The translations under genes and the position numbers were made by a program. From a virus (Duplodnaviria; Heunggongvirae; Uroviricota; Caudoviricetes): a DNA stretch of 64,000 nt. Under the pieces are notes generated by a model. That model had not been told where the DNA came from, made no database searches, and saw only the letters and a list, made by a program, of their open reading frames with translations. Location of the stretch: IMG/VR virus record IMGVR_UViG_3300048590_001376. One strand, 5' to 3'. Below, in pieces: positions 39,611 through 61,679 of this stretch. How positions within the stretch are numbered: position 1 is the first letter of the stretch; each line of letters begins with the position of its first letter.

Positions 39611-39699
39611 ATTACTGGCCCCCTAGGACGCGGAGGAAAGCGACGGCGGCGGGAAGCTTTGTCCTTGATCGCCCGAACGCGGCTGGTCGCCGCCGTCGC

Positions 39700-45057: not shown

Positions 45058-45065
45058 GGGTTGGG

Positions 45066-45090
45066 CTCCGAACTAGGTTTTGGGAAAGCG
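45066..45090 (-). promoter_or_regulatory. Start-associated conserved motif (gene strand: TTTCCCAAAACCTAGTTCGGAG-N8-ATG).
   Basis: One of at least 7 instances of TTTCC-N-AAAACCCTAG-SD-N7-8-ATG upstream of early genes. Confidence 0.5.
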
Positions 45091-45092
45091 CA

Positions 45093-45116
45093 TAAAAAAA
45101 CCCGCTCGATGGCGGG
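45093..45116 (-). terminator. Putative Rho-independent terminator.
   Basis: cccgc-tcgatg-gcggg hairpin (45101-45116), followed on the minus strand by a 7-nt T-run (plus-strand aaaaaaa at 45094-45100). Lies downstream of gene 45135..45599. Confidence 0.4.
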
Positions 45117-45134
45117 TGCCTCGATCGAGGATCG

Positions 45135-45599
45135 TTATTCGTTTGCCTCCTTGCCATCGACGATCCTGTCTACGATGGTCAGTGTGCCGAAGTAATGGAC
45201 GTAGCCGCCGTCAAGCCATGGTTCACTCAGCTTGTCCGGCCGCTCATTGCGAAAGATGATCGCCCGGTCGCCGTCCCAGCCAGTTTCGCGAAGTCTGTTG
45301 ATCGCTTCGGGCACGCTGGAGTCAATGCCCCATCGCCCCGGACCCAGCGCCAGGTAGGTTGTCACAATCGTAACATCCCCTATGGTCTGGAACGTCAGTT
45401 CGTGCGGGTACAGCCTGCTCATGCCGGCTGGGTAGGTGACTTGCTGGACTTTCACGCCATCGAGCAGCTTTTCGCGTTCGATGTTGTAGTTCTCCGCTCG
45501 TTCCACGATCGCGTCCTGGAAGCCAAGAATGTAGGCTCCAGCCGCTGATGATGCGGCGACGGCCGCCCAAAGTAAGTGGATGCTGATGCTCTTTAACAT
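45135..45599 (-). CDS. Secreted protein with a signal peptide.
   Basis: 154 aa. N-terminus MLKSISIHLLWAAVAASSAAGAYILG. Confidence 0.45.
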   Translation of the reverse strand: MLKSISIHLLWAAVAASSAAGAYILGFQDAIVERAENYNIEREKLLDGVKVQQVTYPAGMSRLYPHELTFQTIGDVTIVTTYLALGPGRWGIDSSVPEAINRLRETGWDGDRAIIFRNERPDKLSEPWLDGGYVHYFGTLTIVDRIVDGKEANE

Positions 45600-45675
45600 G
45601 GTGCCTCCTCAGTGTTGGTTGGTGCCACTGCCGTCGGTGTCCCTACTTCGATCGTAATTGATAGTGCAGGAAATT

Positions 45676-45978
45676 CTATACCGGCATGGAAAACAAATCA
45701 CCCAGGGCAGTGTGCTCGTCGAACGCCTGGAGCACGCCAACTTCCTGCATCCGCTCGAACATGTCCCGGTGGACGGCCCACCATGTTTCGCGCTGATGCT
45801 TGGTGCTGGCGTTGGGATTGCGCACCAAAATGATCGGTGCGTGTTTGCGGGTGCGGCCCCACTTGGCTTCGATCCCGGCGAGGCGGAACGTGCTGACGCG
45901 GTACTGGAGTGAGGGTGCGACCATTGGGTTCCTTTCGGATGCAGAAACAAAAACTCCCGCCGCCCAGCGCGCCCACAA
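45676..45978 (-). CDS. Hypothetical protein; start uncertain.
   Basis: 100-aa ORF downstream of the SNF2 gene. Confidence 0.3.
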   Translation of the reverse strand: MWARWAAGVFVSASERNPMVAPSLQYRVSTFRLAGIEAKWGRTRKHAPIILVRNPNASTKHQRETWWAVHRDMFERMQEVGVLQAFDEHTALGDLFSMPV

Positions 45979-46020
45979 CTGACGCGCCAGGTCGACGGGA
46001 GCCCCTAGTGTTGGAATTGG

Positions 46021-48264
46021 TTAGTCAAACAAGAACTTCTCGCGGAACGTGATCTTCCGCTTGGGTGCCGCCGGCTTGGACTGCTCGACGACGGGTTGCG
46101 GCTGCGGCTGCTGCTTTCGCTGACGGCCAGCGGCTTTGTCAGGCTTGGCAGGCGGCAATGATGCGGCCACTGGTGCGGCTGGTGCCACTGCCGGCGGCTT
46201 GAAGTGAGCATTGCCTTGCACCTGACTGACTTTCGACCAGACGCGCTCGGCGTCCATGTCATCCATGCGGTTGACGAGCGAGCGAGCCAGAGCGATTTGC
46301 ATCGACTCGTCGTCTTCACCCGACATGGCCGCGAGCCCTTCGGACGAAAATTTACCCTCGATCGCTTCGGACGCCACGAGCTTGCGTCCCATGAGCGTCA
46401 TCGCGCGGGCCTGCATGGTGCCGGCATAGAACGAGTAGAACACCTTGCATGGCAGGTGCTGGCCAATCCGCCATGAACGGCGAGCGGCCTGCCGCAGCGT
46501 GAACAGGTCGTAGCCGGTTTCGTGAAAGAACAACGAGGGGAAGTTGTGTCGCCCTCGCTTGTCGAACAGATCGAGCCCAGTGCGGACCAGCCGGGGATGT
46601 GAAATGATCACGTCCAGCTTGGGCGCGTGCTCGTTAATCCAGTCCTCGCGAGCATCGGTGCTGACGGATGACCGCAGCACGCGAGCCTTGAGTTTGGCAT
46701 CCCGTAGGGCACGCTCCACGCGGCCAGCGACATCGTGCTTGTTGGTGCAAGTGACGTACACCCAGCACTGCCGGCCGGCGCCATGCTCGGCCAGGATCGT
46801 TTCGACCAGGGCTTGCTCTTTCGCACGGATGGACTCACCCAAGTCCGGCGGTTGGACCACCGGAATGAAGTGATTCTGGATACCCTTGGGCGTCTCGACC
46901 TTTTGCCAATAGCCCACTTCGTCCCAGCCATACGGCATGTCCGGGTAAGTCAGCAGGCAATCAAGCATGGCGGACAGCAGGCGACGATCATTGCGAGCGA
47001 TCATCTGCTTGACGACGATGCGCAACGCCTCTTCGGTTTCCTGGTAGGCTTCCGCGAGCTTGCGGTCCATCTTGATCGGCATCACGATTTCCTCGAACGT
47101 GGGCAAGTTGTCAGACAACTCGTCCAGCGAGAGGAATACGCACTTGTCGATCAGGTGGCGGCCGAACAGCGTAGGCATGATGCCAGGGATGGCCTTTTGG
47201 ATCGTGCGCTGCGAGCCCTTCGATCGCTTGTTGTCAGCGCTCGCGGCGTCGCTCGTGGTGACGACCTTTGTTTCCATCCGGCCGTAGCGGCGATTGAAGT
47301 CCGTCACGTTGCCCCAATGCAAACCCTCGGCGGTGAGGGATTGTGGAGCGATGCGCAGGATCAGCGTGCGCAGGTGCCACGCATAACCGCCGACGAGCGT
47401 ACCAGTCAGGCCGATCACCTTGCGGCAAGCGGCGGCCAGCGTGCCCATGGCGTTGGCGCGGGCAGATGTCGGCGAATTCTCTTCATGGATTTCGTCGACC
47501 ACCAGATAGTCGAAGAATCCCCGCAGGTGCTTTTTGATGTAGTCCGCTGGCGCCCATTTCTTCGTGACGCCATTGTAGGTCCACAGCGGCGAGCCACAGC
47601 CTGGACTTTCTTCGGTGCCGACACAGAAGAGGCGACGCTTGGCCAGCTCGCTCGGCGGAATCGGCGACCCCTTTTTGTTGAGGATAAACCGCCCGCAATT
47701 CGGGCACTGCGGGCAAGTCGACTTGTCAACCTTTGAATAGCCCTTACGGGTTTTCCAGATCGTGTACGCCGGCTCCCAGGCCGCGCCGTCTTTGGCGGTC
47801 GTCTCTTTGACGATCCAGTATTCAGGACCAGTCGGGCGCGAGCGACGATCGAGGCGAGTGAGCTGCCGGAACGACCGGAGCTGTACAACTTGAGCGCCGG
47901 GGACAGTTTCTTCGATCTCGCGCTGCCATTTTTGCGTGAGTTGGGGCGGGCAGAAGATTAACACGCGCTGCGGCTTGCCTTTGCCGTACAACTTGATGGC
48001 GGCGTGAATTGCGGCCATCGCCATGATGGTTTTGCCGGTGCCACACTCGGCGACCATAAGAATCGCCGGGCTGTGCTCCAGCGCCTTGGCTGCTGCGGTG
48101 GCGGCGTGCAACTGCGGATCAAATGGCTTGCGATCGAAATCGAGTTCAATCGGCTTGTCGCGGCCAGGAACGTGCAGCGGCGTAAGTGTTTTAATGGATG
48201 ATCGGCCGAGTAATGGGCCGTACTGGGTCAAATAAGAATCGAGCGAATCGATGTTCGCGAGCAT
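46021..48264 (-). CDS. SNF2-family DEAD/DEAH-box helicase.
   Basis: Motif I AECGTGKT, motif II DEIHE, a helicase C region, and a Pro/Ala/Gln-rich basic tail. Start at the ATG at 48262-48264, preceded by the start-associated motif. The 24-aa N-terminal extension in the ORF track is rejected. Confidence 0.7.
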   Translation of the reverse strand: MLANIDSLDSYLTQYGPLLGRSSIKTLTPLHVPGRDKPIELDFDRKPFDPQLHAATAAAKALEHSPAILMVAECGTGKTIMAMAAIHAAIKLYGKGKPQRVLIFCPPQLTQKWQREIEETVPGAQVVQLRSFRQLTRLDRRSRPTGPEYWIVKETTAKDGAAWEPAYTIWKTRKGYSKVDKSTCPQCPNCGRFILNKKGSPIPPSELAKRRLFCVGTEESPGCGSPLWTYNGVTKKWAPADYIKKHLRGFFDYLVVDEIHEENSPTSARANAMGTLAAACRKVIGLTGTLVGGYAWHLRTLILRIAPQSLTAEGLHWGNVTDFNRRYGRMETKVVTTSDAASADNKRSKGSQRTIQKAIPGIMPTLFGRHLIDKCVFLSLDELSDNLPTFEEIVMPIKMDRKLAEAYQETEEALRIVVKQMIARNDRRLLSAMLDCLLTYPDMPYGWDEVGYWQKVETPKGIQNHFIPVVQPPDLGESIRAKEQALVETILAEHGAGRQCWVYVTCTNKHDVAGRVERALRDAKLKARVLRSSVSTDAREDWINEHAPKLDVIISHPRLVRTGLDLFDKRGRHNFPSLFFHETGYDLFTLRQAARRSWRIGQHLPCKVFYSFYAGTMQARAMTLMGRKLVASEAIEGKFSSEGLAAMSGEDDESMQIALARSLVNRMDDMDAERVWSKVSQVQGNAHFKPPAVAPAAPVAASLPPAKPDKAAGRQRKQQPQPQPVVEQSKPAAPKRKITFREKFLFD

Positions 48265-48275
48265 TGAGTTGATCC

Positions 48276-48300
48276 TTGCACTAGGGTTTTCAGGAGTGAC
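48276..48300 (-). promoter_or_regulatory. Start-associated conserved motif (gene strand: TCCTGAAAACCCTAGTGCAAGGA-N8-ATG).
   Basis: Instance of the early-gene motif. Confidence 0.5.
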
Positions 48301-48308
48301 GCAATGTT

Positions 48309-49046
48309 TCAGGACACTAAACCTAAATGCCTCCAAGCCTTTCCATTCAATATCCTGTATATAGTTGATTTATTCACGCACAATTTATTAGCTATATCGA
48401 TAGCAGACCGCCTGCCAGACGTGATGTCGTTAAAGGCGGTTCTGACTTGCATTTCCGTGAGCTTGTGCATCGGCTGATCTTCGCCGACAGCTCGCTTATA
48501 GCTTTGTGTTCCATGAACATACATATCTGCTGAATTCTCGTTCCGTGTCCCCCATTGAATATTGTTGAGTCTGTTGTTTGATCGATCGCGATCTGGAAAG
48601 TGACGGCACACCATCCCTGGCGGTCGCGGTCCCACGAAAGTTTCTAACACTAGGTCGTGAACGTACCTCATCTCCGGTGGAGACTGCAATGAAACGGCAA
48701 GGTATCCACTAATAGGATTTTTGGCTGGGCGTCTCTTTTTCCATTCGCCACAGATCATCGACCAAATCGATCCGTCCGTTCCAGCAGCATAGTTTTCCCT
48801 TCCAGGGACTAACTTGTACCTCACTCCCGGCTTGCTAGGCGGAAGTGGCGATAGTAATTCTGGAAATAACCTCCTCCACATCGTGTTTACGTAGATGTTG
48901 ATACGGACTCCATTGCGGTAAAAGCCGATCGCACCACTACCTGGAATCTTGAGCTTCTTCCACGAGCCGGATACGTCGGACCAGATGGATCTATCTGACC
49001 CAATGGCGTACTGGCTGGCATTAGGAATTCTTCGACGCTCTATCAT
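48309..49046 (-). CDS. HNH homing endonuclease (two NUMOD-like motifs, HNH, HTH).
   Basis: GSDRSIWS and GTDGSIWS (NUMOD4-like), VCRHFPDRDRSNNRLNNIQWGT (HNH), and a C-terminal HTH (SAIDIANKLCVNKSTIYRIL). Confidence 0.55.
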   Translation of the reverse strand: MIERRRIPNASQYAIGSDRSIWSDVSGSWKKLKIPGSGAIGFYRNGVRINIYVNTMWRRLFPELLSPLPPSKPGVRYKLVPGRENYAAGTDGSIWSMICGEWKKRRPAKNPISGYLAVSLQSPPEMRYVHDLVLETFVGPRPPGMVCRHFPDRDRSNNRLNNIQWGTRNENSADMYVHGTQSYKRAVGEDQPMHKLTEMQVRTAFNDITSGRRSAIDIANKLCVNKSTIYRILNGKAWRHLGLVS

Positions 49047-49055
49047 GCGTGATCC

Positions 49056-49700
49056 TTATTCCACAATCTTAAGATGTCCTTCACGAACGCCGCGACTTAC
49101 TAAGTCGTCAAAATAGTCCGTCCCACCAACCACAACCACCGCGTTGCAGTTGAAGCACGACAGTTTCTCGATCGGACTGTTGCGGTAGCCGCGCTCATCG
49201 GCGAGCGCGGCTTGCATGATCCACGGCGTCCAGCTCCGCAGAACCGGCGTCGTGATATGCTCACTCCGCAAGAAATTCCAAAACGCCTGCTCGGTTAGGT
49301 CCGGGATCAGGCGTTTGTCTTTGGCGATGGCCAACATGTGCCATTGCCCTTCGGAGACGTAGTGCTTGTAGATGCGATAGCCGTTGTCATAGGGCTGGTA
49401 GTAGCCGTAGTAGATCGGGTCGCATCCAGTGAATCGCACCTGACCCACCTTGCTGTGCAGTAGGGCCGCCATCGCCTTGACGGACGTGGACGGCCCAACG
49501 GCTGACAGGATGGCCAGGTGCTCGCTGCGGTAGCCAGTCTTATCGATGGCCGCCGCGGCACAGCGAAGCGTGAAGTCCGAGCCCTTGGCGACCGTCTGGA
49601 CTGTTCCCAGCTTGCGTGGTGCCACTGCCGGCTCGCTACTCTTCGCTGTCGCTTCCCTGCTCATGGTCGTTTTCCTCGCTAGATTGCTCATCGGCTTCAT
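49056..49700 (-). CDS. Hypothetical protein.
   Basis: 214-aa ORF. Its start overlaps the methyltransferase gene end by about 65 nt, so the start is uncertain. Confidence 0.4.
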   Translation of the reverse strand: MKPMSNLARKTTMSREATAKSSEPAVAPRKLGTVQTVAKGSDFTLRCAAAAIDKTGYRSEHLAILSAVGPSTSVKAMAALLHSKVGQVRFTGCDPIYYGYYQPYDNGYRIYKHYVSEGQWHMLAIAKDKRLIPDLTEQAFWNFLRSEHITTPVLRSWTPWIMQAALADERGYRNSPIEKLSCFNCNAVVVVGGTDYFDDLVSRGVREGHLKIVE

Positions 49701-50697
49701 CCTGGAAGGTCATAATGTTGCCAAGGTGATCCAGGGCGCGAACCACCAGACTGATTTTTTCCGAATACACTTGGGTCGTTTGCACGGCCCCGTCCTCTTT
49801 TTCCTCTTCATCGCGGGACACCAGATAGGTGATCTTTTTGGCGGTCCCGCGAACAACGTGTGGCGGCTCGTCTGGCGGCGACACGATGCCATCCAGGTGC
49901 CCAGCGGTAAGCAATAGGGCTCGATGCCCCTTGCCTAACGACATGGGCGGCCGAGCGATGCCGCGATCGACTTGCGGTTGCAAGTGCTGATTGAGCGGCG
50001 AACGATCGACCATTTCCCAGGCTTCTTCGTCGGTCAGCATCGACTTGCGGAAGGTCGTGGGGCCTGGAGTCGCCGGAATGGCGTACAGTCCAGGGGAATC
50101 GCTCGCCTCAGTCGACCACTTGCGAAGCCATGAGGCTTCTGCTTTTTCGCGCTTCACGCCAAAGATGACCACTTCCTTGTACTGCCGGTGAGCAGCCAGG
50201 TAGGGCATCCAGGCGATCTGCCTGTATCGCCCCAGAAGCGTGTCGCAGATGTCCGATCGAGTCATCACGTCGGCCGGACAGGCGAGGCACATCACCCCGC
50301 CTGGCGCCAGTAGATCGGTGCAGCGGCGAAGGAATTGACCCTCGACGCGAACACCCCCGCCCAGCTCAAAGTCATAAGGCGGGTTGCACCAGATGAACCC
50401 GAACCGGCTGTGCGGGCTGACTGACACCGAGTTGAAGTCGGAGTAAAGAACCGTCGCCCCTTCGAGCAAGGCGGCGGCCTCGCGCGATCGGGTGCGGTCC
50501 AACTCCACGGCATAGACCATCTCCGGCGGAACATGCAAGGCGTCGGCGAACTGCTTGGCGGCAGCACCAGCGCCACAGCATGGGTCCAGGAAAGCAAAAC
50601 GGCCGCCAGTTGGCGGCCGAAGATGCTTGACGATGGAAGCGACGACTGGGGGCGGAACCGGGAAAAAACCACCGCGCTTTTGGCCTTCGAGCCTCAT
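49636..50697 (-). CDS. N6-adenine DNA methyltransferase-like protein.
   Basis: Motif I FLDPCCGAG, motif IV WCNPPYD (NPPY), and an acidic C-terminal tail. Confidence 0.55.
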   Translation of the reverse strand: MRLEGQKRGGFFPVPPPVVASIVKHLRPPTGGRFAFLDPCCGAGAAAKQFADALHVPPEMVYAVELDRTRSREAAALLEGATVLYSDFNSVSVSPHSRFGFIWCNPPYDFELGGGVRVEGQFLRRCTDLLAPGGVMCLACPADVMTRSDICDTLLGRYRQIAWMPYLAAHRQYKEVVIFGVKREKAEASWLRKWSTEASDSPGLYAIPATPGPTTFRKSMLTDEEAWEMVDRSPLNQHLQPQVDRGIARPPMSLGKGHRALLLTAGHLDGIVSPPDEPPHVVRGTAKKITYLVSRDEEEKEDGAVQTTQVYSEKISLVVRALDHLGNIMTFQDEADEQSSEENDHEQGSDSEE

Positions 50698-51194
50698 CTT
50701 AAGGATTCCTTTCTGTTGCTGATCTGAATGAACTCAATGTTTGGACCCATGTAAGTTGCGATGCTGCCGTAAATTAAAACAGGCATGTCCAACTTATGCT
50801 CGCGGGCTTCGGCGATGATGTCTCGGAACGTCTCACGATCCAGGATACCGGGTCCAGATGTATTGAAAATCAAGAAGTGACCAACATTTTTGGCTACGGC
50901 AAAAAGATGTCGACCGTCAACACGAGTAATGCGCTTGGCGACCTTTTCATCCGGCCAGCACTGAACGAATTCGGCGTCAGCTCGCCGCTGCCACGCTTCT
51001 CGATCATTGATCCAATTGCGTGTTTCTGGCGTTAGGCAGTAGGCAGGAACAAGAACTTCAGAATGCGGGTTGCGAAATATGGCGTATCTAGCATTCAGTG
51101 GCCCTGTCGGTCCCGTCCAGCCGGAGAATTGACCACGAGTCCACTTCACCTTGCCAGTTACAAAATCCTTGTAGGTGTGCTTCGTAGCCTTCAT
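50694..51194 (-). CDS. Hypothetical protein.
   Basis: 166 aa with an ATGA overlap with the methyltransferase gene. Confidence 0.4.
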   Translation of the reverse strand: MKATKHTYKDFVTGKVKWTRGQFSGWTGPTGPLNARYAIFRNPHSEVLVPAYCLTPETRNWINDREAWQRRADAEFVQCWPDEKVAKRITRVDGRHLFAVAKNVGHFLIFNTSGPGILDRETFRDIIAEAREHKLDMPVLIYGSIATYMGPNIEFIQISNRKESLR

Positions 51195-51470
51195 TCATAC
51201 ACCGCCTTTCTTATGCCCGAATAAATGCCACACAAACGGCGTCTGCTGGAACGTGGCAATGAATTCCAGCGTCGCCAACTGGGCTTCGTCGATCTCATGC
51301 CCGGTGCCGAAGATATGAAACACGCGGCTAACTCGCTGTGCCTTTGGATCGACCAGAGCCCAGAGACATGGCTGACCATCCTGGCATTCGACATGTAGGA
51401 TGCGAGCATTGGCCGGCATTTCGATCACGACGGCATTGTTGATTGGGAATGTAAACTTCCAGATCGTCAT
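51195..51470 (-). CDS. Conserved phage small protein.
   Basis: 91 aa (MTIWKFTFPINNAVVIEMPANARILHVECQDGQPCLWALVDP...). Recurring phage hypothetical family, recalled from memory. Confidence 0.4.
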   Translation of the reverse strand: MTIWKFTFPINNAVVIEMPANARILHVECQDGQPCLWALVDPKAQRVSRVFHIFGTGHEIDEAQLATLEFIATFQQTPFVWHLFGHKKGGV

Positions 51471-51484
51471 TGTTACTGCCTCTC

Positions 51485-53577: not shown

Positions 53578-53606
53578 GCCCGGCGGCGGTGATGGGAAGA
53601 TGGTTA

Positions 53607-54161
53607 TTAAATGCTAGCGGCAGCGACCGGCAGCTTAAAACTGCGCTCAAATCGCAGGCCGAGGCGATTCGCTTCCGCTTGCGATCGCTCCAGTTCGGAC
53701 TTGATTGCGGTAAGCGACTCCTGCTCTTGAGTCAGTTCCTTTTCGAGCGATTCAACCTTGCTTTCCCGCATGCGGACCTGACCCTCGATTTGAAAGACGC
53801 GGCCACGAGCAAATGCGAGCGGATGAACGGCCAGCAGAACCGCCTTGGCGATGTCCCTGACTGTCTTGCGAGCGACATCAGTCGGGTTGTCGTCGCATCC
53901 ACCCGGCTTGTATTGCGTCCGACGTGTGTAGTCACGAGCACGGAAGAATTTTCCATCGCTGTGGCGAATCGCGTCGTGATAATGATTGCGATCGACCTTT
54001 TCTAAGTCGACGTTACCACGATACTCGACGCCGTTAATCGTGAGCGAATCGAACCTCATGTAAACCTGTTCTTCGGACCTTACGTCGTACTCAACTTCGC
54101 CGTACTTCGTCTTAACGGTGCCCTCGCGATCTTTCAGGACGCTGGGGGTGATAACGATCAT
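53607..54161 (-). CDS. Hypothetical protein with a C-terminal coiled coil.
   Basis: 184-aa ORF. Confidence 0.4.
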   Translation of the reverse strand: MIVITPSVLKDREGTVKTKYGEVEYDVRSEEQVYMRFDSLTINGVEYRGNVDLEKVDRNHYHDAIRHSDGKFFRARDYTRRTQYKPGGCDDNPTDVARKTVRDIAKAVLLAVHPLAFARGRVFQIEGQVRMRESKVESLEKELTQEQESLTAIKSELERSQAEANRLGLRFERSFKLPVAAASI

Positions 54162-54225
54162 GGTTATGCTCCAGAACTAAGGTTTAATGAAAAGCAATCT
54201 GCCCAACAGTCAGCCGCCCGGTAGA

Positions 54226-54801
54226 TCAGGCGTACCACGAGCAATAATGAGCCTCGTTGTCGCCAGTCGGTGTGGCGTAGCCGTGACTCATGCGGATGCC
54301 GCCCTCGCCAATCGTCTTTCGCATCGGCGGGCCAATAAACTTGTCACGAGCCGGCATGCGACGATCGGCCATGCCGTTGTAGTCACCTTGGCTTCCAGGA
54401 ACGGTGCGGCTGCCGATCTCCCGCATGGTGATCGTGCAGCCCTTTTTCTCGGTGACTTGATAGAAGTCGCAGTTTGTTTGCTCGTAGCCCCACGAGCAAT
54501 GCAATAGTGTGCCGACGTTGATAATCTCGACCATCTTAGCGATGTCGGCGGCGCGGCGACCCTTGCGAGCAGACTTGTGAGTCTCGCGAGAATCAGCCGA
54601 CCCCTTTTCCTTGCGTATGAAGGCGGCGGCCTTTTCAGCGTTGTCGAAGTAGTAATGAGCAGTCGGCTTTCGAGCCCGGCCCACCCACAACTTGACGCCG
54701 ACTCTGCCAGTGGCAGAGTACGAGTAAGTGACCCAGCGAATGTCTTTGTAGGACTCGGCGTCAGCCGGCGGCAGGTCGGTAAGGAAGGAACGTCGTGCCA
54801 T
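54226..54801 (-). CDS. Hypothetical protein.
   Basis: Start at the ATG at 54799-54801, with GGAG 9 nt upstream inside the start-associated motif. The ORF-track start at 54816 is a GTG codon. Confidence 0.45.
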   Translation of the reverse strand: MARRSFLTDLPPADAESYKDIRWVTYSYSATGRVGVKLWVGRARKPTAHYYFDNAEKAAAFIRKEKGSADSRETHKSARKGRRAADIAKMVEIINVGTLLHCSWGYEQTNCDFYQVTEKKGCTITMREIGSRTVPGSQGDYNGMADRRMPARDKFIGPPMRKTIGEGGIRMSHGYATPTGDNEAHYCSWYA

Positions 54802-54810
54802 GATGAAATT

Positions 54811-54833
54811 CTCCACTAGGGTTTAAGGAAACG
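54811..54833 (-). promoter_or_regulatory. Start-associated conserved motif (gene strand: GTTTCCTTAAACCCTAGTGGAG-N9-ATG).
   Basis: Instance of the early-gene motif. Confidence 0.5.
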
Positions 54834-54858
54834 TGAATGCCGCCAGGCGGCAGCTGGT

Positions 54859-55158: not shown

Positions 55159-55330
55159 CTAGAACGTGAACGGCTTGCGGCTTCATGCGAAACCTCTCGT
55201 AAACTGCCCGATCGGCGTCCGGCCGTCGCATGGCAATCTGCATGAGGCGCTGAGCCTCGTCGAAGTCGCCAGCGTTGCGGGCCTTGAAAGATGCTTCGAG
55301 TAAATCAGCCGTGGTTGCTTCGTTATCCAT
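55112..55330 (-). CDS. Hypothetical small protein.
   Basis: 72-aa ORF overlapping its neighbours; start uncertain. Confidence 0.3.
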   Translation of the reverse strand: MDNEATTADLLEASFKARNAGDFDEAQRLMQIAMRRPDADRAVYERFRMKPQAVHVLVDDADGIPHFVRIAE

Positions 55331-55979
55331 ATTGTCTCCTTTCTCCTGACTTAATCCGCCTTACATGGCGAACTGTTATACCGAAAGTCTTGGCTATTAC
55401 CGACAAGCTAATGCCTCTTTCGATCTTGTTGTGTATCCGCTTAATATCTTCATTGCTCAATCGGGCCATTCCATGCCTTTCCCCACGGTTTGATGTCCCA
55501 TGATTAACACGATCCATTTGGTTTGAGCTAACTGTGCCCCACCGAAGGTTGTCTAGTCGGCAGTCAAGCGGATTGCCGTTTCTGTGACACCCCTCATAGC
55601 CTTGTGGCCTGGGACCAATAAAAGTTTCCAAGACAAGAATATGAACTTTCGTAAGTCGCGTTTGCGACCCATTACATAGCTTGACGGTCAAGTATTCTCC
55701 AGATACTCCGGGACTGAGAAGTTGGCCGGCGTACCCACCTTTATATCCAACATCTCTCCTTAGTCGTCCAAGATTGGATACTGAATACACTTGCTCAAAC
55801 CCGACAACTGGGCGCCACAACTCGCCTTTAATGAAGTTCCTCCTCCCCATGTCCTTAATAATTAATTCCTTGGCGACAGCTCTCGCCGCTGCTCGCGTCA
55901 CATACGGCCCTAGATTGCAACTGCCACCAGTAACCCACCAGGACTTGTCGGCACGACGCTGAATTCTCAGTTGAGCCAT
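55323..55979 (-). CDS. HNH homing endonuclease (NUMOD4, HNH_3, C-terminal HTH).
   Basis: EQVYSVSNLGRLRR (NUMOD4), CHRNGNPLDCRLDNLRWGT (HNH), ISLSVIAKTFGITVRHVRRI (HTH). Start at the ATG at 55977-55979, with GGAGG 4 nt upstream. Confidence 0.55.
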   Translation of the reverse strand: MAQLRIQRRADKSWWVTGGSCNLGPYVTRAAARAVAKELIIKDMGRRNFIKGELWRPVVGFEQVYSVSNLGRLRRDVGYKGGYAGQLLSPGVSGEYLTVKLCNGSQTRLTKVHILVLETFIGPRPQGYEGCHRNGNPLDCRLDNLRWGTVSSNQMDRVNHGTSNRGERHGMARLSNEDIKRIHNKIERGISLSVIAKTFGITVRHVRRIKSGERRQYG

Positions 55980-56260
55980 GCCGCCTCCAGTCTGGCAATC
56001 TCTGAACCCCAGTCGGTTCCGTCTACTGCAAGCGTGAAGTATACACGTTGCCCGCACCTGAGCCTTTTGAGAACAATTGGCTTGTCAGCCAGTGACTCAA
56101 CAGCCATGGCAAGCAGCCAGTGCGTTAATTCGTCGACACTCTGTTCGCAATCAACCGGCTTGCTTTTCTCGATAGCTTCACTGAGTAACTTGAAATCCAT
56201 TCGAGAAACGCCGGGCATGCCAACTGCAAACTGAATAGGAATGTGAAGGTACGCCATCAT
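55967..56260 (-). CDS. Hypothetical protein.
   Basis: 97-aa ORF. Confidence 0.35.
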   Translation of the reverse strand: MMAYLHIPIQFAVGMPGVSRMDFKLLSEAIEKSKPVDCEQSVDELTHWLLAMAVESLADKPIVLKRLRCGQRVYFTLAVDGTDWGSEIARLEAAWLN

Positions 56261-56865
56261 GGGTACTCCGTTACGATGTGCCCGAATCGCTCACATGCCT
56301 CTTTGGTTTCCAAGGTATGCACAGCGACACGGCTAGTTAGATGGCCACGAATCCGCCGCGAGTCCCGGTAGGCCGATTGCTGCCATTCCGGGAAGCACTT
56401 GCGAAAGTCCGGCTCGTGGTCGGCTTTGAGATTGATTCGCCGATTGAGCGCCTGCATAAACTCACGACGGAACCCAGCCAGGCCGAGCCCCTCTGACATC
56501 CGATTCATGCGGATGCGGTTCGAGTCGGACTCTTTCAGCAGAGAAAATGCTCGCTTATACGCCGACGACATTTCCCGGACGTGCCTGTATCGCCACAGCG
56601 GCAGGGAGTTTCGATGCTCGACGAGAGCGTCGAAGATACATTGCTTGTCAGCGGCCGATGGCTCATGCCAATTGCCGCGATAATACTGGTCGACAACAAA
56701 GGCTTGTCGACCGCGATATGGTGCGGTGTGCAGCTTGTTGTGGTGCCACCGCAGCGGACGGCCAGCGTCACGACTAATCAGGTACGCGATCACTGAGCTA
56801 ACGCCCGCCAGCGTGACGAATCCGCCACTATCAGCACGACCGACATGCCATACTGGTAGTTTCAT
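56257..56865 (-). CDS. Hypothetical protein.
   Basis: Start at the internal ATG at 56863-56865 (MKLPVWHV...), with GGAGGAA upstream. Confidence 0.4.
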   Translation of the reverse strand: MKLPVWHVGRADSGGFVTLAGVSSVIAYLISRDAGRPLRWHHNKLHTAPYRGRQAFVVDQYYRGNWHEPSAADKQCIFDALVEHRNSLPLWRYRHVREMSSAYKRAFSLLKESDSNRIRMNRMSEGLGLAGFRREFMQALNRRINLKADHEPDFRKCFPEWQQSAYRDSRRIRGHLTSRVAVHTLETKEACERFGHIVTEYP

Positions 56866-57056
56866 TTGCGATTCCTCCGAAGTTGTTGCAGCTCTCGCCG
56901 AACTATTTCGCGGGCGCCATGGGCTAAGTAGCTTCGCCACTGGCGGCCGCTGGGGCTCGACTTAGAGAGCTTTGTGTGGTCGTTGATCCACGCTTGCCCA
57001 CGAGTGAGCAAGCGGATCTTGTGGATGACTGGGTGCATTAAGTCGCTCCCGTTTGA

Positions 57057-57710
57057 TTAGCCGGCCAGCTTGAGCTGCGCGGCTTGATACAAGTGATACA
57101 TTCCGTTCGGCAGCCCCCTGCCGCGAATCCTGGCTTGATCGGCCTTGATCTCGACGACGCGCTTGCGAAGCGTGCCGACCGTGCGCGGATGGATGTCGAT
57201 TTCCAGATGCCGCAGCAAGTCGACCAGATCGTCGCCGGAGACGTACTCGCCCTGCTTGACTTTGGCGGCGATGGCATCGATCCGCTTCTGTCGCTCGGCG
57301 GCTTTGTCGGCGAGTCGTTGCTGCTCCTTCGCCTCGCGCTCATCCCGGCGGCCTTGCAAGAACGCTTCATAGCGTTCGTGGCCAATGTACTTGCGGAACG
57401 CGGCGTCGGTGCCAGCGACCGTGTTCGGCAGCTCGACGCCAGTGAATGCAGTGAACAGCGCTCGCCAGTTTTTGTTGCTGGGATGCAGGAACCCTTTGCT
57501 ATGCCGCTCCATCATCCGGTCGGGATCGAGGATGATTTCGACCCACTGGTGAGCCTCGCTACGCAGCTTCTCTTTGTATTCAGCAAGCTGCTCCGGCGTG
57601 ATCTTGGCGAGCTGCTCGGCGCGGTACTCGCGATAGTAGGCCATTTCGTCGTCGTATCGACTCTGCGCGAACTGCTCGACGGCCGCATGCTGGTTGGGGG
57701 TAAGTGTCAT
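57057..57710 (-). CDS. Hypothetical protein, helical and charged.
   Basis: 217 aa from the ATG at 57708-57710 (MTLTPNQ...), preceded by the start-associated motif. The 85-aa N-terminal extension in the ORF track is rejected. Confidence 0.45.
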   Translation of the reverse strand: MTLTPNQHAAVEQFAQSRYDDEMAYYREYRAEQLAKITPEQLAEYKEKLRSEAHQWVEIILDPDRMMERHSKGFLHPSNKNWRALFTAFTGVELPNTVAGTDAAFRKYIGHERYEAFLQGRRDEREAKEQQRLADKAAERQKRIDAIAAKVKQGEYVSGDDLVDLLRHLEIDIHPRTVGTLRKRVVEIKADQARIRGRGLPNGMYHLYQAAQLKLAG

Positions 57711-57718
57711 GGCTTCAT

Positions 57719-57742
57719 TCCTCACTAGGGTTTTTGGAAACG
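57719..57742 (-). promoter_or_regulatory. Start-associated conserved motif (gene strand: CGTTTCCAAAAACCCTAGTGAGGAA-N7-ATG).
   Basis: Instance of the early-gene motif. A GGAAACG direct repeat lies nearby. Confidence 0.5.
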
Positions 57743-57772
57743 AGATTGGAAACGGGAATCGAGAGCCAGCGG

Positions 57773-57982
57773 TCACAGTCGAATCCGCAGGTTCTCCAGG
57801 ATCGATTGTTCTCCAGGGGTCAGTTTTCGCTCGGCCTGAATCTTGCGTGCCAAGTCGCGAATCTCGCCAATGCAGATGGCCTCGGCCATGCCTCGCTCGG
57901 ATGCGGTGCCGCCATAATTCACGCGGTCTTGCTGCATGGCGGCGTACAGTTGTGTAATGGTCCATGGCTTCAATTGTTTCAT
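57773..57982 (-). CDS. Small protein; paralog of 58030..58260.
   Basis: 69 aa from the ATG at 57980-57982. The TQLYAAMQ motif is shared with the neighbouring gene. The start-associated motif lies upstream. Confidence 0.4.
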   Translation of the reverse strand: MKQLKPWTITQLYAAMQQDRVNYGGTASERGMAEAICIGEIRDLARKIQAERKLTPGEQSILENLRIRL

Positions 57983-57990
57983 GGTCAATG

Positions 57991-58012
57991 CTCCACTAGG
58001 GGTTTCAGGACC
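57991..58012 (-). promoter_or_regulatory. Start-associated conserved motif (gene strand: GGTCCTGAAACCCCTAGTGGAG-N8-ATG).
   Basis: Instance of the early-gene motif. Confidence 0.5.
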
Positions 58013-58029
58013 GGCCGCATCGCGGCGGC

Positions 58030-58260
58030 TCACTTCACGTTGTCAACGATCACTCGCTCCAGCGGATTCAGCTTGCGGGTCAGCTTGGCTGCCGCAGCCT
58101 GGATGTCGCTGGCGCCTTTAGACCAGCAGGCGTCGCGAGCGGCGTCGGTTGTGCATTGCCGCAGCTCGCGTTGCATGGCCTCGTAGAGTTGACAGATGGA
58201 ACGAGAACGTGGTTGGTTTTCCAGGTAATCCATTTCGGCTTCGATCTGGTGAAGGTGCAT
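58030..58260 (-). CDS. Small protein; paralog of 57773..57982.
   Basis: 76 aa with a CQLYEAMQ motif. Confidence 0.4.
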   Translation of the reverse strand: MHLHQIEAEMDYLENQPRSRSICQLYEAMQRELRQCTTDAARDACWSKGASDIQAAAAKLTRKLNPLERVIVDNVK

Positions 58261-58366
58261 TGGCTACTCCGTTCGTTTATTCATGGGAATCCAAAATCGC
58301 CAGCACGGCCGCGAGGCCGAGCAGTAGATAGAAGAGAGAGGCGAGCATTCCTTTGCTCCTGATGAT

Positions 58367-58621
58367 TTAAGTCGGCGGATGAATAACTTCGTCGCTATTG
58401 CAATCCGACCAGAGCGTGTGCCAATTACCGCACCCGTCGTCGTACTTCAGGAGCACCATGCGAATCTCGCCGCGATACAGCGGCTTAACGATGTCGTCCA
58501 CCCTTTCGATCGTGGCTCCGACGTGAGGCAAGTTCAGGCTTTGTAACGCTCTCACCCGCATCCCAACGTAAGCCTCGCTGGGGCGAACTGGCTTGATCTT
58601 TTGTTTGTGCTTCGTTTCCAT
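58367..58621 (-). CDS. Hypothetical small protein.
   Basis: 84-aa ORF. Confidence 0.4.
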   Translation of the reverse strand: METKHKQKIKPVRPSEAYVGMRVRALQSLNLPHVGATIERVDDIVKPLYRGEIRMVLLKYDDGCGNWHTLWSDCNSDEVIHPPT

Positions 58622-58624
58622 GGT

Positions 58625-59299
58625 TCATCCCCAAGGGAGTTGGTACTTCTCACTGCACACCGGCCCATAGCCCACTTCCACAGAACGCGGATCAGTGAGC
58701 GGCCTGGCACAGAAGCAGCAATTGCCAGTCTCGCGGCCATACTCGGCAGCGACTTCGGCCGGGTCCGCGGCGAAGCGTTTCAGGAAAGCGATCACGTCTT
58801 GATCGCTGTTCTTTCCCTCGACCAACACGCCACCCTTGGTGACGTGCCCGTACCAGCGGTTGTTGGGGAAGTGGCCATCGTCAGTGACCATGATCGAGCC
58901 AGCGTATTTGCTGTTTGGCCCGGCTAGGTACAACCGCACGCGGTCGCCGCTCTCCAGGTCGAAGCTGATCTTCGGCTTGCGAAGCGACTCGGCGGCGTGC
59001 TGGAACATGGCGTAGACTTGCGAGAAATCGCCAACCTTGTGAGTCGGCTTCTCTGGTGCCACGCCCGACGATTGGGCTCGCTCAATTGCCTCGTTGACTA
59101 GCTTGTGAACGTATGGCCACTGCCGCTCGGTCAGGCTGCCGTAGCGCCGCCAGGACGTAACGAGCGACTTGGCGAATTCAAGCGCCCGCGGCGGTGTGCC
59201 AAGGGCCTTTTCGTCGGCGATGTCGCAGAGGCGAGCAATCGCAGTGGCGTCGGACATGTCGCTGTCGAAGGACTGTCCGGTGGAAAGAGTCATCATCAT
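58625..59299 (-). CDS. Protein with a C-terminal DUF6011-like zinc-binding motif.
   Basis: 224 aa. C-terminal GNCCFCARPLTDPRSVEVGYGPVC resembles DUF6011, recalled from memory. The start-associated motif lies upstream. Confidence 0.4.
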   Translation of the reverse strand: MMMTLSTGQSFDSDMSDATAIARLCDIADEKALGTPPRALEFAKSLVTSWRRYGSLTERQWPYVHKLVNEAIERAQSSGVAPEKPTHKVGDFSQVYAMFQHAAESLRKPKISFDLESGDRVRLYLAGPNSKYAGSIMVTDDGHFPNNRWYGHVTKGGVLVEGKNSDQDVIAFLKRFAADPAEVAAEYGRETGNCCFCARPLTDPRSVEVGYGPVCSEKYQLPWG

Positions 59300-59307
59300 G
59301 GTAGGTG

Positions 59308-59331
59308 CCTCGAACTAGGGTTTCGGAAATG
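59308..59331 (-). promoter_or_regulatory. Start-associated conserved motif (gene strand: CATTTCCGAAACCCTAGTTCGAGG-N8-ATG).
   Basis: Instance of the early-gene motif. Confidence 0.5.
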
Positions 59332-59352
59332 AAGGACAGCGGGCGACGGCTG

Positions 59353-60084
59353 TCACCACTCGTCCGGATTTTCTTTCTCGTGTTGGAATGCACACTCGGC
59401 GTGCATTGAGCCTTGCGGCGTACTCTCGCCGTCCGACTCTTCTTGGATCATCTCACCGCAGTGCGCGCATTCGATTCCCTCGTGACGATGGCTGCTGCCT
59501 GGTGGCCCGCCAGCAAAGTCGCCGCCGCAGGTATCTTTGGCGTCGTCTAGGTCGCAATCGCGAATCGTCTTATCGATCAACTGCTCCAGTCCTTCGCCGG
59601 TCTTGAACGTGAATTGCCATTTATCGTCAGGCCGCGGCTCAAGTTGGAACCATGCGGACCTATTGACCAATGACATGCAGATCGCGCGGACATAGCGGCC
59701 AGTCACAAGGCGATCAACAACCAGCTCGTCAGCCGCGACAACCAGCTTGTCGGCAATGTCTTTGAGTCGGCGGTAGAGTTCTTGCCTGCTCATAAAGAAA
59801 TCGCGGCTGGGCTCCGGCGTCTGCTCAGCGGGTTCCTTGTCGGCCAGCTCGGCGCTGCCATTGTGTTCCGCAATGAACAAGGCATCGCGAGCCTGCCGCA
59901 ATGCTTGCGGATCGTGCTCATTCAGGAATGCCACAATCTTCGGGTCGAGCACGAGCATCGACAGTGCCGTAAACATCCGCTGGCCGCGAAACCACAACTC
60001 TTTAACAAGCGGATCGCAGAGCGAATGCAACGGAACGATCTTGCAATCGGCTTTCGTGGCGTGCGGATGACCTTTAATAAACAT
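59353..60084 (-). CDS. Hypothetical protein with a C-terminal CxxC...HxxC cluster.
   Basis: 244 aa from the ATG at 60082-60084, downstream of a terminator hairpin. The longer ORF-track start would place the hairpin inside the gene. Confidence 0.45.
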   Translation of the reverse strand: MFIKGHPHATKADCKIVPLHSLCDPLVKELWFRGQRMFTALSMLVLDPKIVAFLNEHDPQALRQARDALFIAEHNGSAELADKEPAEQTPEPSRDFFMSRQELYRRLKDIADKLVVAADELVVDRLVTGRYVRAICMSLVNRSAWFQLEPRPDDKWQFTFKTGEGLEQLIDKTIRDCDLDDAKDTCGGDFAGGPPGSSHRHEGIECAHCGEMIQEESDGESTPQGSMHAECAFQHEKENPDEW

Positions 60085-60103
60085 GGGCAGTGACCTTTCA
60101 ATG

Positions 60104-60135
60104 AAAAGGCCCCGCATGGCTGCGGCCATGCGGGG
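60104..60135 (-). terminator. Rho-independent terminator.
   Basis: Perfect 11-bp stem ccccgcatggc / gccatgcgggg (60110-60135), followed on the minus strand by CCTTTTCATT. Confidence 0.5.
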
Positions 60136-60175
60136 CTCGGTGAAGAAACGAACGAAACTCTGGCGTCAGGTCCGG

Positions 60176-61648
60176 CTATGCCTCGACAGCCTGTCGCTCC
60201 ATCAGCAGCTTGGCGGCCAAGCCGAACGCGAAATTCTGAAAGTCCCGCGTGAAGTCGCCGGCCTGGGTGATGTAATGGGCCAATTCTTCAAGCATGACGT
60301 AATGCAATATCGCGCTGCGTCCGGTGGCGATGTCCGCGTGAATGCAGATTTCGCTGGTGCCCATCAAGTGGTATCCCAGCGTCTGCTTTCCGCCGTTGTC
60401 GGTCAACATCATGTAGCAGCGGATGCCCGGCAGCAGCTTGCCATTGGTCATGCCGCGAGCTTCCAGCTCGCCCCAGATTTCATTGGCCACGGCAAGCGTG
60501 TCGTCGGTCGGCGGCAGCATCTGCTTGCCTTCCCGCTCATCTTTGGTCATGACATCGACATCGGTCGTGATGCCATAACGCTGCAACACTTCGTACCAGT
60601 TGGATTGCCGAACGGTGATCGTCCGGTATCCCTTCGAGGCGAGTGAATCGACAACGTAGTCGATCGGCATGCAGGCGACTCCATCGCCAACCGCCAGTTT
60701 CCAGGCCGCCTGCCACTTCTCCTTTATGGCCTTGATCTTCTCGCTGCTACCGTAGCGAATAGGCTCGATCAGGTCATAGGACGAGAAATCCTTTTCCCAG
60801 TAGTCCGGGCTGTCCGGGTCGACGATGGCCCGAAACAGCGTGACCAGCGTGGCGGCATCTGCATTCGCCAAAGCGACCGAGGCGGCATCTTCGCACGAGG
60901 AATCATTGACGTTGCGGCTTTCATCCATCCGCAGGTCGTCACCCAGGTTGTAGTCGAACAAGCTGGGGCGCTCGTCGTCGATCTGGCGAACGAACACGCC
61001 ATTGCGATAGATGGCAGCCGACTTTCGACCATCCATGTTGCGATCGGTCTTGAGCAACACACGCTTGGTGAGGCTGTCCGGCTCGCCCAGGTGCAAGAAC
61101 CGCTTCGGTAGCTCGCGGTGAATCTTGCTGATCTCCGGTGCTAACGGGACAAAGACTCGCGTGTGGCCAGCCTTGGCTCGCATCTTCGATTCGTCCACCA
61201 CGTCAATCACGGCATTGCGCCAGGTGCCGGTTTCCCGCGTCGCACGATCGAGTGCGTTGCTGACAAACTCGCGGATGGCCATGGCCAAGTTATCCCAGTC
61301 GTGGACGCCGTGCTCCAGCACGAAGCCCAGTTCCTGGCGAACGCGGCCAGACTTGCCAGAGCGTTCATCCTTGCCAGACATGTTGCAGACGACCGCTCCG
61401 TACTCATGCGAGAGCAGGCCATCGGTGACGGGTTTCGGCTCGCGGTGAAACTCCAGCTTGCGGGTGCCGCAGTAGACGGTCGGGTTGATGTCGTGTCGCA
61501 GCAGCAGGCCAACCGCTTGCTTGGCGCCGGAGCCGAACTGACCGATCAGGTTGCTGGACGAGCTGTCCATGCGAGTCGTCGAAACGCCAAGCATAGTGAA
61601 TCCCTCGACAGGTGCCACGCCGGGGTTCTCGATGAGCAAAAACAACAT
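60176..61648 (-). CDS. Large early protein of unknown function.
   Basis: 490-aa ORF preceded by the start-associated motif. Confidence 0.5.
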   Translation of the reverse strand: MLFLLIENPGVAPVEGFTMLGVSTTRMDSSSSNLIGQFGSGAKQAVGLLLRHDINPTVYCGTRKLEFHREPKPVTDGLLSHEYGAVVCNMSGKDERSGKSGRVRQELGFVLEHGVHDWDNLAMAIREFVSNALDRATRETGTWRNAVIDVVDESKMRAKAGHTRVFVPLAPEISKIHRELPKRFLHLGEPDSLTKRVLLKTDRNMDGRKSAAIYRNGVFVRQIDDERPSLFDYNLGDDLRMDESRNVNDSSCEDAASVALANADAATLVTLFRAIVDPDSPDYWEKDFSSYDLIEPIRYGSSEKIKAIKEKWQAAWKLAVGDGVACMPIDYVVDSLASKGYRTITVRQSNWYEVLQRYGITTDVDVMTKDEREGKQMLPPTDDTLAVANEIWGELEARGMTNGKLLPGIRCYMMLTDNGGKQTLGYHLMGTSEICIHADIATGRSAILHYVMLEELAHYITQAGDFTRDFQNFAFGLAAKLLMERQAVEA

Positions 61649-61654
61649 GATGAA

Positions 61655-61679
61655 ACTCCACTAGGGTTTTTAGGAAACA
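61655..61679 (-). promoter_or_regulatory. Start-associated conserved motif (gene strand: TGTTTCCTAAAAACCCTAGTGGAG-N7-ATG).
   Basis: Instance of the early-gene motif. Confidence 0.5.

Follow-up and report, generated by a model that had tools for sequence, protein, structure and literature searches.

The phage DNA analysed here (IMG/VR record IMGVR_UViG_3300048590_001376; 64,000 nucleotides (nt), referred to as the window) carries essentially all of its genes on the minus strand, as evident from third-position GC content (GC3) and open reading frame (ORF) patterns. Along that strand, non-structural genes extend from 64 kb to approximately 27 kb and are followed by genes for the portal (25101-26765), a protease/scaffold-like protein and the major head protein (18477-21796), and the tail, including the tape-measure protein (3560-5980). 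The non-structural products comprise an SNF2-type helicase, a DUF6094 methyltransferase, a DUF6011 protein, an ankyrin protein, a PAPS-reductase, ParB-like proteins, a ThyX-domain fusion, MazG-like and MazZ-like enzymes, a Cro/CI-type helix-turn-helix (HTH) protein and the products of four HNH homing-endonuclease-like genes; gene order and gene content together indicate a segment of a siphovirus-like phage that is cut at both window ends. In this non-structural part a repeated motif was found directly 5' of the Shine-Dalgarno sequence (SD) of nine or ten genes, all of them non-structural, at sites spanning 38-62 kb and in a single orientation. Gene calls were made with a crude caller of our own, supplemented by the ORF listing and by ortholog alignments; host assignment, the designation 'early' and every functional statement below are inferred.

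Copies of the motif

On the minus (coding) strand the motif reads cGTTTCC, one to three nucleotides, AAACCCTAG and usually a T, directly followed by a separate SD. An earlier note, made from the sequence alone, had reported a start-associated motif upstream of at least seven early genes. The architecture is present at all seven, and additional copies before the ATG codons at 54161 and 38414 bring the number of strong copies to nine, beside a degenerate copy before 39610 and a doubtful one at 27210-27221.

All of these lie on the minus strand, as do the genes that they precede. Copy 1 (61646..61677; TTTCCTAAAAACCCTAG-T-GGAG-N7-ATG) precedes the gene of a 490-amino-acid (aa) protein whose function is not known (60176..61648), and here the motif still adjoins the SD in an intergenic gap of 140 nt. 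Copy 2 (59297..59329; TTTCCGAAACCCTAG-TTC-GAGG-N8-ATG) belongs to the DUF6011 gene (58625..59299), and copy 3 (57980..58011; GTCCTGAAACCCCTAG-T-GGAG-N8-ATG) to that of a 69-aa protein (57773..57982). In copy 4 (57708..57752; CGTTTCCAA-tct-CGTTTCCAAAAACCCTAG-T-GAGG-N9-ATG), located before the gene of a 217-aa protein (57057..57710), the TTTCC box is doubled with a 12-nt period. Copies 5 (54799..54831; TTTCCTTAAACCCTAG-T-GGAG-N9-ATG) and 6 (54159..54193; TTTTCATTAAACCTTAG-TTCT-GGAG-N7-ATG, also written AAACCTTAG) stand before genes for proteins of 191 aa (54226..54801) and 184 aa (53607..54161), respectively. Copy 7 (48262..48296; CTCCTGAAAACCCTAG-TGCA-AGGA-N8-ATG) precedes the SNF2-type helicase gene (46021..48264) and copy 8 (45055..45087; TTTCCCAAAACCTAG-TTC-GGAG-N8-ATG) the DUF488-N3a gene (44656..45057). 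Finally, copy 9 (38412..38440), before the gene of the 468-aa ThyX-domain protein (37008..38414), consists of TTTCCTGAAACTCTAG overlapping GGAG, with N8-ATG thereafter, and is also written AAACTCTAG.

The copy that had been noted before 39610 (39608..39639; TTTCCTCCGCGTCCTAG-GGGG-N9-ATG; 138-aa protein) exists but is weak, sharing only TTTCC and CCTAG with the others, and it lies approximately 90 nt 3' of the only canonical sigma70-like promoter (39737-39708). The sequence previously placed at 27208-27217 is likewise real, and its status as a copy is uncertain: located at 27210..27221 (CGAAAACCTAGG) in a 160-nt gap before the first late genes, it (GAAAACCTAGG) scores 12 bits, has no TTTCC box, and lies 72 nt 5' of the best start (GTG 27137, with a GGAGG SD) and 13 nt 5' of an in-frame TTG.

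With the motif as a guide, the true starts of several genes can be assigned, and the corrections of ORF starts that had been based on it proved plausible. A GTG start at 54816 would fall within the motif itself, a TTG start at 48336 would overlap the upstream HNH gene (ortholog alignment also backs 48264), and an ATG start at 57965 would overlap the 69-aa gene starting at 57982.

Frequency and position of the motif

With at most one mismatch, AAAACCCTAG occurs eight times against 1.14 expected, a count reached in none of 100 shuffles. Six of the eight matches are previously listed minus-strand sites at 48281-61670; the seventh listed site, before 45057, reads AAAACCTAG. Similarly, TTTCC-N1-3-AAAC has seven matches (1.0 expected). 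In a weight-matrix scan of the window all nine strong matches end 9-15 nt 5' of a called start, and no match of comparable score was found within coding sequence. Since the matrix was trained on the same nine sites, the independent evidence is the AAAACCCTAG count against shuffles. When the same matrix was applied to 1.1 Mb of other loci, approximately one match per 50 kb was obtained for the two strands together, compared to nine in 25 kb on one strand of the window. The pattern is clearly at odds with what the earlier note had named as refuting evidence, namely an equal frequency in coding regions with no positional bias relative to start codons.

These counts bear directly on the simplest explanation, namely that there is no special element and that the leaders share an extended ribosome-binding site (RBS) or a chance similarity. 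Leaders in this phage group are indeed generally pyrimidine/A-rich and G-poor 5' of the SD, as such an explanation would have it; however, the excess over both shuffles and background makes it extremely improbable. The core is probably not complementary to the 3' tail of 16S rRNA.

Each of the nine strong copies is followed by an ATG start with a good SD, which takes the form GGAG, GAGG or AGGA and is separated from the ATG by 7-9 nt. The TAG of the core ends 10-16 nt from the ATG, with a gap of -2 to +4 nt to the SD, and its distance from the upstream stop codon varies from ~14 to ~110 nt. Because the distance to the ATG is near-constant and that to the stop variable, the motif is anchored to the downstream SD and ATG and not to the upstream gene. 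The uniform orientation described previously therefore holds, all copies being on one strand, but the uniform spacing does not; nor does the SD sit inside the motif at a fixed distance, given that the core lies 5' of a separate SD with variable gap and spacer. The motif is found before none of 24 late-gene leaders, and no strong copy precedes a structural gene.

Several candidate identities were discarded. A function of the TAG as the stop codon of a small upstream ORF, or as a reinitiation signal, is contradicted by an inconsistent TAG-ATG frame and by the lack of a common upstream ORF, and no complement of the CTAGGGTTT type, as would be expected of an antisense partner, occurs elsewhere on the transcribed strand. 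A search against known RNA families in Rfam gave nothing at the gathering threshold and, at E<=1, one irrelevant weak terC match.

Versions of the motif in related phages

No near relative of the window was identified among deposited phages (megablast against phage records) or IMG/VR contigs, and a pattern scan of IMG/VR for close relatives sharing the motif returned single chance matches only, unrelated to the window. The closest contig, L009 (JBGSKX010000158.1), was binned with a Pirellulales metagenome-assembled genome (MAG) but is phage-like; its helicase is 55% identical to that of the window, and its version of the motif is GTTTCAC..CCCCAACTCTCAC. In this contig CCAACTCTCA occurs 14 times on the coding (plus) strand and never on the other (1.35 expected), each copy following GTTTCAC and lying 12-29 nt before an ATG with an SD between. 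More distant contigs carry versions of their own. L033 (helicase identity 50%) displays a hairpin followed, right up against GGAG, by between one and three TTAACCC(T) units spaced at 12 nt; L036 (45%) has TTTCCTGTAGC 2-4 nt before the SD in six leaders, which corresponds to the TCCTG..TAG sites of the window minus AAACCC; and L040 (41%) has GTTTCCC..TAAC(C/A)CT-GGAGG. Both L033 and L040 possess TTAACCCT abutting GGAG. Orthology mapping furthermore revealed that the DUF6011 and helicase genes are preceded by the motif in both the window and L009, in each case in the phage's own version. From the relatives and this mapping it may be concluded that the lineage as a whole retains the architecture (a GTTTC box, a G-free block and the SD), with each genome having a block sequence of its own.

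Other oriented repeats were observed in these and further contigs. L009 contains a second one, CGCTGGCACTG(T)TAA (22 copies on the coding strand, one on the other), often a few nucleotides past stop codons, with some copies intragenic and with variable spacing to the start motif. An analogue of the L009 CTGGCACTG element was sought in the window and dismissed, the strand bias of TGGCAC being accounted for by coding sequence. In a Chloroflexota MAG contig (L025; JAAENG010000219.1), GGAGGTGAGTGATG occurs 11-16 times on one strand and forms an unusually uniform, extended SD-plus-start cassette. Two IMG/VR jumbo-phage contigs (L041 and L058; GC 30%) show a strand-biased TATATAG (14 to 4 and 13 to 3, respectively), which, with many copies 10-30 nt upstream of the SD, is likely to be a phage-specific promoter element.

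Within the window, the motif tolerates small length changes (the N1-3 gap and a C-run of CC, CCC or CCCC), and the core shows two point changes, both C-to-T. Similarity between copies often extends past the core and across the spacer that separates SD and ATG: copies 1 and 5 hardly differ in approximately 33 nt, as far as the ATG, copies 2 and 8 share 77% identity over 35 nt, and copies 4 and 5 share 73% over 45 nt. In our own alignment, the leader of 54161 resembles the motif-less leader of 62979 with AAACCTTAGT inserted, on which basis the core behaves as an add-on module. Partial tandem duplications of the motif are present at 57710 in the window, in L033 and at 15023 in L009, and copies 3-6 lie within an ORFan stretch that differs between the window and L009.

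The extended similarity, the duplications, the position of copies 3-6 and the homogenised version particular to each genome would all be in keeping with a mobile or recombining intergenic cassette resembling the promoter early stem-loops (PeSLs) of T4-type phages, for which no dedicated trans-acting factor is needed. Modules (hairpin, TTTCC box, AAACCCTAG and SD) would then be copied and homogenised by recombination, acting as shuffling points for early genes, and only a generic leader or RBS function would be required. However, PeSLs hold a sigma70-type early promoter, of which there is none here, an upstream hairpin occurs at only ~5/9 copies, and drift combined with gene conversion leaves unexplained both the strict juxtaposition to the SD and the G-free composition shared across distant relatives. 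We thus regard this cassette explanation as rather unlikely.

Leader composition, hairpins and promoters

At positions -30 to -16 the G content of motif leaders is 0.09; the remaining early leaders have 0.18, the late leaders 0.23 and coding sequence 0.29. The low value fits an accessible single strand. A hairpin in which the TTTCC box would pair with and sequester the SD was considered and rejected, as it can be drawn in some copies only and has weak energies, and the SD is no more or less accessible in motif leaders than in others. Small hairpins do occur upstream of 61648, 59299, 57982, 54801 and 45057 (~5/9 copies), with a weak one at 54161 and none before 57710, 48264 and 38414, and about half of the copies come after such a hairpin or a T-run.

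Terminator-like hairpins are enriched in 38-64 kb. The four strongest, with T-runs, are located at 63028-63004, 60136-60109, 53587-53554 and 44173-44141 (minus strand), and each is followed within approximately 20 nt by an SD and ATG with no motif or recognisable promoter; it follows that there is read-through or antitermination, or else that these hairpins represent RNA 3'-end or processing elements. Two of the four leaders have GGAGCAAT-N-AAYC-ATG in common. A sigma70 scan of 44-64 kb yielded three weak sites against seven expected, with none at the motif, and in 26-64 kb there is only one canonical sigma70-like promoter (39737-39708, minus strand; TTGACA-18-CATATT). The motif itself was rejected as a sigma70 promoter, the scans being negative at its sites, and as a sigma54 or extracytoplasmic function (ECF) sigma promoter, on account of incompatible spacing in our own inspection.

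The scarcity of canonical promoters raises the possibility that the motif is a phage-specific promoter of the early or middle class, served either by a phage RNA polymerase or by host polymerase equipped with a sigma or specificity factor that the phage encodes beyond the window, with transcription starting at or just before the SD to give very short leaders. The motif is oriented, repeated and approximately 20-23 nt in length, and it differs between related phages as T7-group promoters do. Its G-free block is followed by G-rich sequence, as in promoters of the T7 type, in which TATA is followed by the G-rich initiation sequence GGGAGA. A single canonical sigma70-like site is present in 38-64 kb despite the enrichment of terminator-like hairpins, several copies come after a hairpin or T-run, and phage precedent in general points the same way. 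Moreover, in L033, a JGI contig of 66.6 kb, a gene at 21159-22061 (minus strand) specifies a member of the sigma70 family that has regions 1.2, 2 and 4, and the window is cut at both ends, so that a polymerase or sigma gene could lie beyond them. Conversely, no RNA polymerase or sigma domain was detected in any window ORF searched, the genome continuing past both ends, and late genes lack the motif. The internal spacing is variable (N1-3 and the C-run), the motif-ATG distance in L009 is 12-29 nt and never more, and the geometry on inspection is unlike that of sigma70, sigma54 or ECF-sigma promoters. The motif-less genes directly after the four strongest hairpins further imply that read-through occurs in any case, the motif not being needed for transcription to restart. 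On balance a promoter is the strongest alternative to the translational role proposed below, possible but less likely than that role.

A 512-nt non-coding gap (39611-40122) houses both the sole canonical sigma70-like promoter mentioned above and the only plausible plus-strand ORF (39782-40126; 114 aa, with a weak LITAF-like zinc ribbon); this gap may constitute a regulatory switch region. Such a switch-like region with a divergent ORF at 39.6-40.1 kb would suit a further explanation, in which a phage DNA-binding protein would use the motif as its operator on the DNA and silence early genes, the site working as a roadblock or a repressor target much like the asymmetric stoperators found in Cluster A mycobacteriophages. 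The site is asymmetric, some 10-13 bp in length, in one orientation, placed in short intergenic regions and different between related phages, and its sub-boxes recur at a 12-nt period. Its core includes CTAG, a tetranucleotide that is rare in the genome (63 copies, observed/expected 0.27), ten of the 63 copies being within the motif, and a Cro/CI-type HTH protein is encoded at 34170-34433. Nonetheless, nothing about a roadblock calls for its lying 0-4 nt from the SD each time, the motif is not a palindrome of the sort to which HTH_3 proteins normally bind, and the G-free strand bias is left unexplained. Neither an integrase nor a repressor was identified in the window, and there is no sign that the phage is temperate. 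An operator of this kind is accordingly improbable.

A proposed role at translation initiation

The reading that we favour, with a probability of roughly 0.4, is that the motif is an mRNA-leader element that acts at translation initiation and is read by a trans-acting factor specific to the lineage; it probably marks a co-regulated gene set. In this scheme a set of non-structural messages of the phage, early or middle, would carry the element in their 5' leaders, where its G-free stretch, which runs from the GTTTCC box over 1-3 nt to AAACCCTAG and borders the SD on its 5' side, would presumably be single-stranded, and a factor bound there would govern access of the 30S ribosomal subunit. The reader would be particular to the phage lineage, most likely a small phage-encoded RNA-binding protein and less likely an endoribonuclease, and would switch the nine or ten marked genes together, by the logic of the T4 RegA operators or RegB targets. 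Candidate readers include small basic proteins encoded at 45676-45924, 52283-52516, 56862-57038, 57773-57982 and 61789-62169, and the HTH protein (34170-34433). The element would thus work as RNA, and the effect of the factor could be either repression or enhancement. A translational operator or enhancer, or the binding site of a phage regulator, as proposed at the outset, would be compatible with everything found.

This mRNA-level role was ranked first because the motif is coupled to the SD and ATG irrespective of gap length, is used with ATG only, has a G-free, single-strand character, tolerates small insertions and deletions, leaves late genes unmarked and exists in genome-specific versions at orthologous genes. 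Length tolerance and C-to-T changes are more typical of recognition of single-stranded RNA than of a rigid promoter. As a general enhancer of ribosome binding would not be expected to skip the 24 late leaders, their lack of the motif suggests class-specific control, and the possession by each phage of its own version at orthologous genes argues for co-evolution with a specificity determinant. In addition, L009 encodes, adjoining its ankyrin gene, a CsrA-family protein (5387-5602, plus strand; Pfam CsrA, 31 bits, cutoff 27), a family of leader-binding regulators, and leader-level control is consequently within the repertoire of this group.

Several observations weigh against this interpretation. 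No RNA-binding regulator was detected in the window with Pfam, PHROGs or NCBIfam, and a CsrA homolog, sought there after the L009 find, was not present. Given that no early sigma70 promoter is recognisable, an unrecognised promoter class must exist, for which the motif is the sole repeated candidate, and oriented conserved motifs before early or middle genes of phages are most often promoters. Motif leaders do not stand apart from other leaders in predicted RNA folding or in how accessible the SD is, and the TTTCC box can pair with the SD in some copies only. Concerted evolution by gene conversion between cassettes could also produce the pattern with no factor needed. A search for a regulator common to the relatives was unproductive, the only widely shared unit being the methyltransferase/~200-aa protein/helicase module.

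A broader version of the leader-element proposal, which we advance tentatively and with the odds against it, holds that phages of this lineage, which apparently infect Planctomycetota, tag an early regulon with a G-free 'address' directly 5' of the SD, that a small phage RNA-binding regulator or nuclease reads it, and that address and reader co-evolve such that a given pair of orthologous genes bears a different code in every phage. If true, this would be the first mechanistic entry point to start-associated sequences, known in actinobacteriophages since 2011 and still unexplained, and would define a new family of translational operator-repressor pairs. Such repeats have been known from a few actinobacteriophage clusters, without a mechanism, and are found here in an unrelated, uncultured phage lineage. 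The separability of the block from the SD and the different versions at orthologs point to a specific reader and not to the ribosome alone, and the natural variants in the relatives offer several alternatives for comparing function. The candidate co-regulated set includes the SNF2 helicase, the DUF6011 protein, the DUF488 protein and the ThyX-domain enzyme.

Gene content and probable host

The nearest relative of the window helicase among 5.8 billion proteins is 58% identical, and its relatives in species-representative genomes are nearly all from Planctomycetota MAGs, on which basis a Planctomycetota host is considered likely. The helicase belongs to a conserved module with the DUF6094 methyltransferase and a protein of ~200 aa, found in the window (46021-50697), L009, L011, L014, L016, L033-L036 and L040; it occurs in phage contigs as well as in large Planctomycetota MAG contigs.

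The four HNH homing-endonuclease-like genes (55323-56057, 48309-49046, 42870-43526 and 36472-37101, minus strand; one HNH-AP2) are scattered among the non-structural genes and have a low GC3, and one of them is directly 5' of the helicase copy of the motif. The region 35341-45057 (minus strand) holds a gene cluster suggestive of modified DNA or of nucleotide-pool remodelling, with genes for MazG (35341-35769), the 468-aa ThyX-domain fusion (37008-38414), a MazZ-like dGTP/dATP diphosphohydrolase domain (38755-39201), a SET-domain protein (41235-41789), a ParB-like protein (41737-42879), the PAPS-reductase (43387-44106) and the DUF488-N3a protein (44656-45057). Also in this region, 44209-44565 (minus strand) encodes a histone H1-like protein of 118 aa (isoelectric point 12; lysine/alanine/proline-rich), whose coding repeats are 18-nt tandem units at 44324-44443. 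No tRNA genes were found in the window, and a PDB sequence search with the product of the first motif gene and with a 621-aa ORF gave no match to indicate function.

Comparison with known systems

Promoters of the T7-group single-subunit RNA polymerases are oriented, phage-specific repeats of ~23 nt with a G-poor upstream part and a G-rich initiation region; they need the phage polymerase and strict internal spacing, also drive late genes and usually give longer leaders. The motif differs from these in its variable spacing and its restriction to genes other than late ones, and no RNA polymerase was found in the window ORFs searched. The stoperators of Cluster A mycobacteriophages, asymmetric sites of 13 bp whose consensus varies by phage, are numerous, lie chiefly between genes and all point one way with respect to transcription; they are spread over both genome arms, their placement is independent of start codons, and the protein that binds them is the prophage repressor. 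In contrast, the motif is tied to the SD and confined to the non-structural region, and neither repressor nor integrase was found in the window. Stoperators are also mentioned in connection with Cluster K (PMC3203893).

PeSLs of T4-type phages, each a terminator stem-loop with a sigma70 early promoter, have been proposed to mediate modular shuffling (PMC2839356, PMC4122927). Like the motif, they are composite intergenic modules before early, often ORFan, genes, are genome-specific and show extended similarity between copies; unlike PeSLs, the motif lacks a sigma70-type promoter, has a hairpin in approximately half of its copies and has a conserved block that abuts the SD. The sites recognised by the T4 proteins RegA and RegB mark some 30 early messages at their translation initiation regions and serve in the shut-off of early protein synthesis; both kinds of site are unstructured and single-stranded, those of RegA being at or just 5' of the AUG and those of RegB at the GGAG SD (PMC3014915). 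By analogy, the position of the motif and its absence of predicted structure would be compatible with a RegA-type operator. However, the sites of RegA extend over the AUG, are rich in A/U and show poor conservation, the motif being far more conserved, and RegB cleaves within GGAG itself; no homolog of either protein was detected in the window in Pfam and PHROGs searches.

Several features are shared with the start-associated sequences (SAS) of Cluster K mycobacteriophages, to which the motif had originally been compared. SAS, a subset of which have an extended element upstream (ESAS), are short asymmetric repeats in one orientation, located in the non-structural half before starts with a preference for ATG (PMC3203893), and an SAS-like motif is described for Microbacterium Cluster EF phages (PMC7302621). 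The resemblance holds insofar as all of these are short, asymmetric, highly conserved and in one orientation, with ~10-19 copies per genome (nine strong and one degenerate in the window), are restricted to the non-structural half (38-62 kb and 0/24 late leaders here), stand immediately 5' of starts with ATG preferred (9/9 here), and often have a second, weaker element just upstream. With respect to this last element, ESAS consist of 17-bp imperfect inverted repeats; the window has the GTTTCC box in nearly all copies and a hairpin at ~5/9, and no conserved 17-bp inverted repeat was found upstream of its copies.

The resemblance fails with respect to SD placement and sequence. SAS occupy the position of the RBS, contain AGGAG and end 3-7 bp from the start (PMC3203893), whereas the window motif has a G-free core that stops 10-16 nt short of the ATG, the SD being a distinct, variable block 3' of it, and that is unrelated in sequence to the SAS consensus GGGATAGGAGCCC. 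Additionally, the SAS sequence is the same across Cluster K subclusters, while the window, L009, L036, L033 and L040 each have their own version, and SAS hosts are Actinobacteria, in contrast to the probable Planctomycetota host of the window. In a separate IMG/VR contig (L054; IMGVR_UViG_3300035158_000483), all nine occurrences of CCCATAG are on the same strand, seven of them fused directly to GAGG-N5-9-ATG, and the resulting ATAGGAG core equals the centre of the SAS consensus GGGATAGGAGCCC. The closest positional analogue is provided by the Microbacterium Cluster EC phage Quhwah, for which approximately 12 motif copies are described, each 22-30 bp upstream of a start (PMC7302621); these are likened to the window motif by position only, being upstream of the RBS and not on it. 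Since the core is not the RBS and its sequence is unrelated to SAS, we classify the window motif as a variant of the start-associated repeats and not as a member of SAS.

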